NCBI RefSeq assembly: GCF_003334255.1
Contig: NZ_QOWU01000047.1
Origin: Escherichia coli
Lineage (GTDB): Bacteria > Pseudomonadota > Gammaproteobacteria > Enterobacterales > Enterobacteriaceae
Length of the DNA stretch: 43,500 bases
Strand: one strand, 5' to 3'
Of the stretch, positions 40,306 through 42,230 are shown one piece after another (the stretch's first letter is position 1; the number at the start of each line of letters is the position of its first letter). Made by a program: the position numbers and the translations under genes. The notes below the pieces were generated by a model. The model worked only from the letters and a program-made list of their open reading frames with translations, ran no database searches and was not told where the DNA came from.

Positions 40306-41724
40306 TTATTTCCCCTTCCGCGCCGCCTCATACGCTGCCAACGTTTGTACTCTCGCTTCTTTGTGCTCGACTATCGGTTGCGGATAATCCAGCGTCACAC
40401 CTGCTTTCTGCGCCCACTTCCACGGCTCATGCACCACTTTCCCTGGCACATCGCGCAGTTCCGGTAGCCACTGGCGGATAAACTCGCCCTCATGATCAAA
40501 TTTCTCGCCCTGGGTTGTCGGGTTGAAAATACGAAAATACGGCGCTGCATCGGTTCCGGTTGAAGCGGCCCACTGCCAGCCACCGTTATTGGCTGCCAAA
40601 TCACCATCAATCAGCTGCGACATGAAATATCGCTCGCCTTCGCGCCAGTCGATCAATAAATCTTTCACCAGAAAACTGGCTGTAATCATCCGTAGCCTGT
40701 TATGCATCCAGCCAGTGCTGTTAAGCTGACGCATAGCGGCATCAACAATCGGGTATCCCGTTTTGCCTTCCTGCCAGGCCTGTAAATGTGCGGGATTGCT
40801 CTGCCACTGTACACGATCCGTCCAGGCAATAAATGGACGATGTTTACACAACGAGGGGTGATACGTTATCAGGTGACGGTAAAACTCGCGCCAGATCAGC
40901 TCATTAAGCCAGACACTACCGGCCCCACCGTCCAGCGCCTGCGGCTGTTCAGCCAACAAGCGATGCAAGCACTGGCGAGGCGATAACCCGCCCGTTGCCA
41001 GGCTGGCCGACAAACGGCTGGTGCCTTCCACTGCCGGAAAATCTCGTTGTTGCTCATATTCTCCGGCACCGTTCTGGCAAAACTGGCGTAATTGCGCAAT
41101 CGCCGCTTTTTCTTCCACCGGAAAATGCGCAGTATCGAAAGACTGACGAGGATAATTCAGCGTAATGGATGGCGAGGGCTCTATCGATCCGCTACTACGA
41201 ACTTTTGGCGCAGCGACGCACTCCGGCATCCCTTCCCGCAGCCGTTTCAGCCAGGCATTCTTAAAAGGCGTAAAGACTTTGTACATCTCGTGATTACCGG
41301 TCATCACCGCGCCAGGCGGCAGGATCACGCTGTCATCAAATCCTTCACACACCACGTTACGCAGCGCTCTTTCAACTTCCACATCCCGCGCCCGCTCATT
41401 CACTTCATACTGATAGTTATAAAACAGGTGGGTAACGCTGTTTTCCGCGCACACCTGTTTAACTATTTCGACACTGGCGACAAAGTCATCCACTTCACGG
41501 AACAATAAAGGAATACCTTTTTCCGCAAGCGCTATTTGTAGCCCATTCAGTTGAGCATTGATAAGTTCAGCCTGACGCGGCGACATGTTATGCGTCGCCC
41601 ACTGGCGTGGTGTAGCGATATACAACGCCAGCACGCGTGCAGACGAATTGCGGCAGGCGGCAGCCAGTGCGAGATTATCGTGCAGACGTAAATCCTGGCG
41701 AAACCAGACCAGATGGGTAGTCAT
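40306..41724 (-). CDS. phr: Deoxyribodipyrimidine photolyase (CPD photolyase, FAD/MTHF-binding)
   Basis: 472-aa ORF MTTHLVWFRQDLRLHDNLALAAA... with photolyase N-terminal and FAD-binding domains. Confidence 0.95.
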   Translation of the reverse strand: MTTHLVWFRQDLRLHDNLALAAACRNSSARVLALYIATPRQWATHNMSPRQAELINAQLNGLQIALAEKGIPLLFREVDDFVASVEIVKQVCAENSVTHLFYNYQYEVNERARDVEVERALRNVVCEGFDDSVILPPGAVMTGNHEMYKVFTPFKNAWLKRLREGMPECVAAPKVRSSGSIEPSPSITLNYPRQSFDTAHFPVEEKAAIAQLRQFCQNGAGEYEQQRDFPAVEGTSRLSASLATGGLSPRQCLHRLLAEQPQALDGGAGSVWLNELIWREFYRHLITYHPSLCKHRPFIAWTDRVQWQSNPAHLQAWQEGKTGYPIVDAAMRQLNSTGWMHNRLRMITASFLVKDLLIDWREGERYFMSQLIDGDLAANNGGWQWAASTGTDAAPYFRIFNPTTQGEKFDHEGEFIRQWLPELRDVPGKVVHEPWKWAQKAGVTLDYPQPIVEHKEARVQTLAAYEAARKGK

Positions 41725-42230
41725 AAAACTCCTGAATGGCGCAAGTTAATCACACGCGGCCAAAGTTCGAAATAACGCTGCCCTGAAAGCCAGGCGTCAG
41801 GATAAAGCGCCATATAGTGTTTGATACGCATCAGCGGCGCAAGAAGTGGTTGCTCGCCACGGCGATAACTGTCGATAAGCGCAGCCAGCTGCTGGCGTTC
41901 TGTGGAATCAATATGCGGGCGAAAATAACCCTGAACGTGCATCAAAACATTGGTGTGATCGCGCGGGTTGGCGGGGTGAGAAAGCAAAACAACTACGCGT
42001 TGGCGGTACTGGTTGTAATAGTCATCCAGATTTTGCCACTGGTGAATATCAGCCACGAACGGGCCAAGTTTGCGGTACTCCGGCTGAGAATGCGCCAGAA
42101 AGACGAGTTTATAGCGGCTGTGATAATCGAGAAGCGCCCCGCGCGTTAAGCCATGTTCTTTCAGTCGATGTAACTCATGAAGGGCAAAGATACGGATTAG
42201 GGTGCTGTCATCAAATCGTTGTAGATTCAT
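41721..42230 (-). CDS. ybgA: DUF1722-family protein of unknown function, co-transcribed with photolyase
   Basis: 169-aa ORF whose stop overlaps the phr start by 4 bp. Confidence 0.85.
   Translation of the reverse strand: MNLQRFDDSTLIRIFALHELHRLKEHGLTRGALLDYHSRYKLVFLAHSQPEYRKLGPFVADIHQWQNLDDYYNQYRQRVVVLLSHPANPRDHTNVLMHVQGYFRPHIDSTERQQLAALIDSYRRGEQPLLAPLMRIKHYMALYPDAWLSGQRYFELWPRVINLRHSGVL

Follow-up and report, generated by a model that had tools for sequence, protein, structure and literature searches.

The ybgA gene upstream of phr in Escherichia coli is very probably a rudS gene without its catalytic domain

Introduction

The closest described relative of the gene considered here is that of RudS, a protein in which the [4Fe-4S] desulfidase TudS (formerly DUF523) is fused to a DUF1722 domain and which erases 4-thiouridine (s4U) from tRNA (Jamontas et al. 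2024, PMC11417400). RudS bound tRNA in electrophoretic mobility shift assays, DUF1722 was assigned as its tRNA-binding domain and touches the anticodon arm in the RudS model, and methionine substitutions in the DUF1722 loops (N202/N203 and S243/R244/T246) lowered the activity, the strongest effects being those of S243/R244 in RudS_KT (PMC11417400). Overexpression of RudS eased the growth delay induced by ultraviolet A (UVA), and the RudS genes often lie within light-responsive photolyase/LitR operons; Escherichia coli carries only a stand-alone DUF1722 protein, YbgA (PMC11417400). Here we analyse the gene for this protein, ybgA, and the photolyase gene phr (phrB) that follows it, in a 43,500-nucleotide stretch of E. 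coli DNA (contig NZ_QOWU01000047.1; the window, below, is this whole stretch), and propose that ybgA is very probably what is left of a rudS gene.

Other described systems share parts of this arrangement. Stand-alone TudS (DUF523) proteins, which are thiouracil and 4-thio-UMP desulfidases (PDB 6Z92/6Z96), form part of the ancestral two-domain system as well, and of sulfur-nucleobase metabolism; they represent the catalytic half and act on small molecules, and YbgA is the reciprocal, non-catalytic half. The light-inducible phrB-litR-rudS operons of Pseudomonas, of the LitR/MerR type, likewise co-express a photolyase with a DUF1722 gene in a light-stress response, and in Shewanella a ybgA-phrB-cfa unit stands behind an RpoE2/ChrR photo-oxidative-stress promoter. 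The ybgA-phr pair, the part that DUF1722 plays in tRNA binding by RudS, the RudS-photolyase operons and the inactivity of YbgA as a desulfidase are already published. What we add is modest: that ybgA would be the positional orthologue of rudS minus the catalytic domain, that such losses recur, and that the remnant is still selected.

The DUF1722 gene next to phr is usually an intact rudS

The two genes and the domain concerned are as follows, in coordinates of the window.

41721-42230, minus strand: ybgA coding sequence including the stop, 169 aa, a stand-alone DUF1722 protein (from the list of open reading frames)
40306-41724, minus strand: phr/phrB coding sequence, 472 aa, class I cyclobutane pyrimidine dimer (CPD) photolyase; in RefSeq phrB, deoxyribodipyrimidine photo-lyase
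41757-42110, minus strand: DUF1722 (PF08349), YbgA residues 41-158 (hmmscan E 6.2e-35, model positions 1-117 of 117)

Both open reading frames (ORFs) lie on the minus strand and overlap at exactly the positions given in the original prediction for this stretch. YbgA scores 347.9 bits against NCBIfam NF007549 (curated cutoff 237), which places it in the DUF1722/YbgA family, still named 'hypothetical protein' in NCBIfam, and its AF2 model is all-alpha with a pLDDT of 96.3. Phr matches PF00875 (DNA_photolyase, E 9.1e-45) and PF03441 (FAD_binding_7, E 1.2e-87), as a class I CPD photolyase does. The sequence matches that of E. coli K-12 MG1655 with 100% identity; the annotation there reads dtpD / phrB / ybgA / ybfD. 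Of 5426 complete E. coli genomes, 5423 carry the ybgA-phr locus, and the pair is ordinary, annotated K-12 biology.

For a comparative survey, a DUF1722 alignment scan over one genome per species gave 80 loci, all from Enterobacterales, which together with three context loci and the window make 84. In 64 of them phr is found immediately downstream of the DUF1722 gene. The original prediction had proposed such a conserved linkage to CPD photolyase, and the survey bears it out; its remark that a role behind the linkage was, to its knowledge, not established is outdated, since the RudS paper (PMC11417400, 2024) accounts for the linkage. What does not hold is that the 169-aa protein is the conserved partner of phr. 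The normal partner is the full RudS: 51 of the 84 loci hold an intact protein of 317-320 aa, in which none of the ISAC, xCPE and SPSCG motifs is missing, and the median distance from there to phr is 15 nt. Another 13 loci have short forms (11; Escherichia, three, Citrobacter, four, Trabulsiella, and Yersinia, three) or degenerate ones (two; Leminorella and Budvicia), each then followed by phr, and the 169-aa form is very probably a derived truncation. The other 20 loci have no intact phr within 4 kb, and most of them belong to a separate paralogue clade with an ISGC motif. One such phr-less paralogue, in Enterobacter cloacae (L074), adjoins a MerR/MlrA/CarH-like regulator, an arrangement that matches the LitR type of PMC11417400.

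At one locus, that of Mixta mediterraneensis (L037), an intact RudS is followed at 4726-4827 by a short fragment resembling a photolyase C-terminus (residues 437-470, 52% identity); phr has apparently been deleted there and rudS kept.

YbgA corresponds to the C-terminal domain of RudS

The whole of YbgA can be aligned with the last 160 residues of intact enterobacterial RudS. Its DUF1722 is homologous to that of RudS (P. putida PP_0741; S. enterica STM1389/ORF319), and its identity to the DUF1722 part of the genes upstream of phr, in the 64 loci, is 50-68%. The close relatives (50-65% identity) found in a word-indexed search vary widely in length and form a graded series. At the intact end are TudS-DUF1722 proteins with ISAC, PVCPE and SPSCG. 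P0122 is full-length (319 aa), has lost all three cysteines and is encoded directly upstream of phr. In proteins of 250-290 aa (Leminorella, 259 aa, Affinibrenneria and others) the N-domain is unrecognisable, in a 189-aa Citrobacter protein the first 12 RudS residues, 'MSKRIPVGIHTC', are joined to DUF1722, and the proteins of 157-169 aa are DUF1722 alone. The intact (L004), Citrobacter, Leminorella, Klebsiella-type 163-aa and 'dead' 319-aa forms are all found directly upstream of phr, and where the flanks are visible (L001, L004, L086, L088) they occupy the same syntenic site, ybfA(DUF2517)-X-phr-ybgI-pxp.

YbgA itself has no PF04463 match, the TudS motif columns being gaps in its alignment, and tblastn with the TudS domain found nothing at the window locus. 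What sets YbgA apart from RudS is the loss of the whole TudS/DUF523 domain, with the catalytic Glu, Ser and Arg as well as the three cysteines of the [4Fe-4S] cluster, to which are added a diverged TudS-facing linker and C-terminal tail and the lack of s4U desulfidase activity in vivo (PMC11417400); what the two have in common is the position directly upstream of phr, the candidate promoter element, the basic charge and the loops implicated in tRNA contact, all treated below. Because of the shared syntenic site upstream of phr and the series of intact, degenerate and short forms, we consider E. coli ybgA to be, with high probability, the positional orthologue of the phr-linked rudS from which the catalytic domain was deleted.

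TudS-like DNA was found in only 15 of the 5426 E. coli genomes, at about 71% identity to the query and on accessory islands or plasmids (plasmid-borne in two of the 15), so that YbgA would normally be without a catalytic partner in trans. In the chromosome of E. coli ET479 (L089), a full-length DUF523-DUF1722 gene (3989-4948) lies near an integrase and fragments of restriction genes; genes of this type appear to be horizontally acquired and unrelated to the ybgA locus.

The TudS domain was probably lost several times

The deletion junctions differ among the short forms. Escherichia and the short Citrobacter proteins share 'FD(D/E)STL', Trabulsiella has 'MCENF...', and those of Yersinia and of the Klebsiella type are different again. 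In a neighbour-joining (NJ) tree the short forms fall on long branches in at least three places. We conclude that TudS was probably lost or inactivated independently at least four times (in Citrobacter, Trabulsiella, Yersinia, the Klebsiella type and Budviciaceae, besides Escherichia).

A single origin of the Escherichia and Citrobacter deletions was considered, given the shared 'FDDSTL' junction and the NJ clustering. The identity matrices favour separate origins or recombination: the short Citrobacter cores are 70-73% identical to full-length Citrobacter RudS against 64-66% to E. coli, and the phr genes that follow them are 87-90% identical to phr of the Citrobacter species with intact rudS. 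The recurrent loss of TudS, with DUF1722 kept under purifying selection (see below), implies a TudS-independent function of the module.

The overlap with phr is confined to Escherichia

The elements at the two ends of ybgA were read from the sequence.

41721-41724, minus strand: ATGA stop/start overlap of ybgA and phr (ybgA TGA 41723-41721, phr ATG 41724-41722)
41729-41733, minus strand: AGGAG, Shine-Dalgarno (SD) sequence of phr, now within the last ybgA codons
42236-42240, minus strand: AGGAG, SD sequence of ybgA, kept before the start codon in the relatives

On the coding strand the junction reads ...TCAGGAGTTTTATGACT, that is, the codons CAT TCA GGA GTT TTA TGA with the phr ATG embedded. 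Among the phr-linked loci this overlap is limited to the three from Escherichia, namely those of E. coli, of E. albertii and of a cryptic-clade member. The remaining 61 phr-linked loci, from other genera, have no overlap and a spacer of +1 to +163 nt, and the 'tcaggag' of the phr SD is intergenic spacer sequence in the relatives. These have '...cat TAA ttcaggagNtgt ATG' where Escherichia has '...cat tcaggagtttt ATGA'; the TAA that precedes the phr SD in the relatives argues that the ancestral stop was lost in Escherichia, where the ORF now runs through the phr SD. Judged from these alignments, the ybgA-phr overlap is a derived, Escherichia-specific trait and not a conserved coupling device.

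The local mRNA fold at the junction is unremarkable (z = -1.69; 12 of 200 shuffles fold as well or better), and the minimum free energy fold pairs part of the phr SD whereas the centroid fold does not. Since phr has a strong SD of its own and the fold is of this kind, translational coupling of the two genes is plausible but would not be obligatory. The claim that the pair is almost certainly both co-transcribed and co-translated thus stands in its first half, which is well supported by the results of the next section; co-translation is only plausible, the overlap being peculiar to Escherichia.

A candidate sigma-S-like promoter element is shared with intact rudS

The candidate promoter element of the pair lies just upstream of ybgA.

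42258-42266, minus strand: TCTACACTT, candidate extended -10 of sigma-S type in the promoter of ybgA-phr, with the ATG 27 nt downstream

The extended -10 consensus of sigma-S promoters is KCTAYRCTTAA, and TCTACACTTAC, at 42256-42266 on the minus strand, fits it at 10 of 11 positions. The pattern KCTAYRCTW (the KCTACACTT element) stands 25-40 nt ahead of the start codon at 41 of the 64 phr-linked loci, against 2 of the 20 phr-less paralogue loci; the 41 are spread over several families, with short as well as full-length forms among them. We take TCTACACTT to be a probable promoter element of ybgA-phr; the scan gave no sigma-70 consensus promoter upstream of ybgA. A sigma-S-like -10 fits the published RpoS dependence and stationary-phase induction of the gene: ybgA is among the RpoS-regulated genes, with lower transcripts in the rpoS mutant (PMC3306417), and ybgA and phrB were co-induced in early stationary phase on O157:H7 arrays (log2 2.27 and 2.15; PMC2241611). 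Between ybgA and phr the scan found neither a sigma-70-like promoter nor an intrinsic terminator and, with the published co-induction, this makes co-transcription well supported. The lone sigma-70-like match in the region (TCGCCA-16-GATAAT, 9/12, 41674-41701, minus strand) lies inside the 5' end of phr and is probably due to chance, one match comparing with 2.6 expected from shuffles.

The distance from the -10 element to the ATG is equal in E. coli and in the genomes with intact rudS, which suggests that ybgA still begins at the start codon of the ancestral rudS, the deletion having preserved the reading frame. Upstream of the element the picture changes. The homology of K-12 with the relatives ends about 2 nt before TCTACACTT (42258-42377 compared with L007, L001 and L013); what follows directly upstream is the ybfA terminator hairpin in the relatives and the end of an ISAs1/H-repeat element (ybfD) in K-12, the neighbouring genes being ybfA and then kdp in the former and ISAs1/ybfD in the latter. 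An island insertion would therefore have replaced all of the sequence beyond the extended -10, and with it any -35 or UP region. Neither the E. coli locus nor the phr-linked loci examined in other enterobacteria have a MerR/LitR gene; in this they differ from the Pseudomonas phrB-litR-rudS operons, having the conserved sigma-S-type -10 in its place.

A leader of another kind was seen in Erwiniaceae. The sequence 'GCTACACTTaaaCCTCtacaagatttcGGAGGttgtacaagtATG', which contains TACAAG/TTGTACA repeats, is conserved 40 nt upstream of rudS in Pantoea (L046, L047, L052, L053, L056, L058) and Mixta (L045). Pairing of its CCTC...GGAGG arms could mask the rudS SD, and the leader could be a translational or operator element of the Erwiniaceae rudS-phr operon.

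The remnant is under purifying selection

Ratios of nonsynonymous to synonymous substitution (dN/dS) were calculated pairwise by the Nei-Gojobori method on the DUF1722 part. They were 0.12-0.14 for the short forms of Escherichia (dS 0.29-0.39) and 0.035-0.11 for those of Citrobacter, and 0.07-0.12 for the adjacent phr; over a dS range of 0.3-1.2, the values of the short forms stay close to 0.1 in two lineages that are independent of each other. The YbgA remnant is under purifying selection, similar to that on phr and far from neutrality (dN/dS of 1). The ORF is intact across E. coli, E. albertii and the cryptic clade.

The residues that are kept are those of the domain core. Short and full-length forms share an invariant set (H37, R39-L42, L45-Q49, Y52, R53, G56, H92-R104, I119, Y122, R123 and Q151-F154), and the DUF1722 core, including the AHSQ loop and the HTNVLMHVQGYF segment, is equally conserved in both; the AHSQ loop is present in 20 of 20 short forms and the Arg equivalent to R244 in 15 of 20. 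YbgA also aligns over its full length with the RudS homologue P0206, at about 30% identity in DUF1722; the residue numbers of P0206 agree with those of P. putida RudS_KT at 12 of 16 markers. The positions that are invariant in RudS yet free in the short forms lie in the N-terminal linker (LxDPxLRENF) and the C-terminal tail (PYPEALRLRYGH), which plausibly are the surfaces facing TudS. The E. coli domain has a charge of +6 and a pI of 9.7, against means of +6.1 and 9.6 for intact RudS, and the E. coli and Citrobacter short forms stay basic (+4 to +6, pI about 9.4-9.9).

A possible tRNA-binding role for YbgA

The reading that we prefer, and which we hold with somewhat more belief than doubt, is that YbgA is the kept tRNA-binding module of a disabled RudS, co-expressed with photolyase and non-catalytic on tRNA. 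Most Enterobacterales have an intact rudS immediately upstream of phr, with the conserved sigma-S-like -10 in front of both. In Escherichia, an in-frame deletion very probably removed the [4Fe-4S] TudS domain and left the ancestral promoter, SD and start codon in place, and with the later loss of the stop codon the ybgA ORF came to run through the phr SD and to end in ATGA. The remnant is still selected, and keeps the DUF1722 core, the loops predicted from RudS mutagenesis to contact the anticodon arm, and the basic surface charge. At present YbgA would bind tRNA without catalysis and be produced alongside photolyase when cells are in stationary phase or under light stress. During near-ultraviolet (near-UV) stress it would act on tRNA, for example by binding or buffering molecules that contain s4U or are cross-linked, and would act neither on DNA lesions nor on photolyase chromophores. 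The adjacency of ybgA and phr would reflect shared regulation inherited from rudS-phr and not a physical partnership.

For the present function taken by itself, as a non-catalytic protein acting on tRNA, we put the chance a little short of even. The phenotype that points to tRNA is a weak one: in a screen with epetraborole, an inhibitor of leucyl-tRNA synthetase, the Keio ybgA deletion was a hypersusceptibility hit beside trmU, yheM and trmC, and was uncomplemented. A more specific proposal, which we regard as improbable, would make YbgA a non-catalytic 'reader' of tRNA, kept by selection for the near-UV response; it might bind s4U-containing or s4U8-C13 cross-linked tRNA and so shield it, route it for turnover or tune the stringent response. 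Enterobacteria would then have turned the RudS eraser into this pseudoenzyme at least four separate times. That YbgA brings photolyase to photodamaged RNA is more speculative. The likeness to pseudoenzymes of RNA-modifying enzymes is that the catalytic part was lost and the substrate-binding module kept under purifying selection, with P0122, devoid of all the cysteines, and the degenerate domains of Budvicia and Leminorella as pseudoenzyme-like intermediates; the difference is that in YbgA a binding or regulatory activity is so far predicted. E. coli, the species in which the s4U-dependent near-UV growth delay was defined, very probably bears a disabled s4U eraser, which may help to explain why the UVA growth delay and the burst of guanosine tetraphosphate (ppGpp) are stronger in E. 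coli than in Enterobacter, as the RudS authors speculated.

Several observations weigh against this reading. On the side of function, overexpression of YbgA left the s4U content of tRNA and the utilisation of thiouracil unchanged (PMC11417400, Fig. 3A), tRNA binding by the stand-alone protein is argued from RudS homology, and the DUF1722-tRNA contacts in RudS themselves come from docking, molecular dynamics and mutants of partial effect, with no solved structure. In K-12, N88-P89 correspond to S243/R244 of RudS_KT, which puts Pro89 (window 41964-41966, minus strand) at the key Arg; position 89 is Arg in most E. coli alleles, in E. albertii and in 98% of intact RudS, and Pro in K-12 and a few alleles, so the K-12 laboratory strain may carry a weakened ybgA allele (R89P). 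On the side of selection, the same domain is held more tightly in intact RudS (dN/dS 0.004-0.07), a relaxation of about 2-4 fold, frameshifted ybgA alleles occur in some E. coli and Shigella, and the short forms of Yersinia and Trabulsiella are acidic, having lost the basic charge, which means that the remnants need not all share one function. The survey, finally, ascertained loci by DUF1722 similarity, and phr loci that have lost the whole gene would go unseen.

Alternatives to a selected tRNA-binding remnant

One alternative is a neutral relic in slow decay, functionless since the loss of TudS and conserved through limited time and linkage to phr. The relaxed dN/dS, the long branches of the short forms, R89P with the frameshift alleles, and the lost charge in Yersinia and Trabulsiella would all be in keeping with decay. 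Against it, dN/dS stays near 0.1 over a dS of 0.3-1.2 in two lineages, a value that equals that of phr, and the ORF is intact in all three Escherichia lineages at a locus that nearly every E. coli genome carries; we regard such a relic as unlikely.

Slightly less likely still is that ybgA serves for expression only, the ORF being kept since the sole promoter, SD and start lie upstream and re-initiation at the ATGA serves phr, with a functionless polypeptide. The overlap does put the phr SD inside ybgA, phr has no separate consensus promoter save the chance-level match within it, and both the overexpression without phenotype and the circulating frameshift alleles would be expected of such a leader. 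An open frame would suffice for this purpose, yet the Escherichia dN/dS and the invariant core residues speak of a constrained protein. Citrobacter, Yersinia, Trabulsiella and the Klebsiella type keep the whole domain although they are 3-24 nt from phr, several of these spacers having an SD-like GGAG; the independent deletions, at least four, all halt at the same domain boundary; and the phr ribosome-binding site is not convincingly sequestered in mRNA structure.

The original prediction was right in its theme of light damage and of a tightly packed gene unit, and had suggested a role in UV-damage repair or in chromophore handling. In this explanation, YbgA would be a photolyase accessory that binds Phr, loads or protects its FAD/MTHF (flavin adenine dinucleotide/methenyltetrahydrofolate) chromophores, or targets Phr to its substrates. 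Every TudS-less or degenerate form found (the 13 loci, the Klebsiella type and the 'dead' 319-aa form) does lie directly upstream of phr, the two E. coli genes are co-induced, and the Shewanella unit with its photo-oxidative-stress promoter would also suit an accessory. The documented partner of DUF1722 is nevertheless tRNA, within RudS; the paralogue clade has the same domain away from phr and beside a MerR/CarH-like regulator, and Mixta mediterraneensis keeps an intact RudS beside a mere remnant of phr. In vitro, purified E. coli photolyase needs no accessory proteins for the repair of CPDs. Among the closest relatives searched there were no DUF1722-photolyase fusions, of the kind that would give Rosetta-stone evidence: the 120 closest clusters are all without a photolyase Pfam domain, and no protein among the best 150 representatives is longer than 351 aa. 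Given the documented tRNA partner, the paralogues away from phr and the lack of fusions, we find the accessory role unsupported and the least likely of these explanations.

Four distant stand-alone DUF1722 proteins (P0205, P0215, P0184 and P0252), on contigs of 0.8-1.8 kb, were sampled for linkage to phr; one is followed by a photolyase, and may be a RudS cut by the contig end, and two by unrelated genes.

Features around the pair

Upstream of the ybgA promoter the window carries the insertion mentioned above.

42304-43139, minus strand: ISAs1/H-repeat terminal sequence and ybfD (253-aa ORF, 42378-43139; in RefSeq 'ybfD: ISAs1 family transposase'), just upstream of the ybgA promoter

The gap between ybgA and the ybfD ORF is 147 nt. 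On the other side of the pair, dtpD and phr are convergent, and no canonical intrinsic terminator for either gene was detected in the spacer between them (40157-40305), which holds imperfect palindromic 'gcctgatgcgacgc...gcgtcttatcaggcctac' units resembling repetitive extragenic palindromic (REP) elements or bacterial interspersed mosaic elements (BIME). Within the ybfD region, a 69-nt segment occurs twice, at 42304-42372 and 43258-43326, 954 nt apart and with 86% identity; the two copies mark where tandem ISAs1/H-repeat units end in the ybfD/ybfL region, and the transposase ORFs are interrupted.

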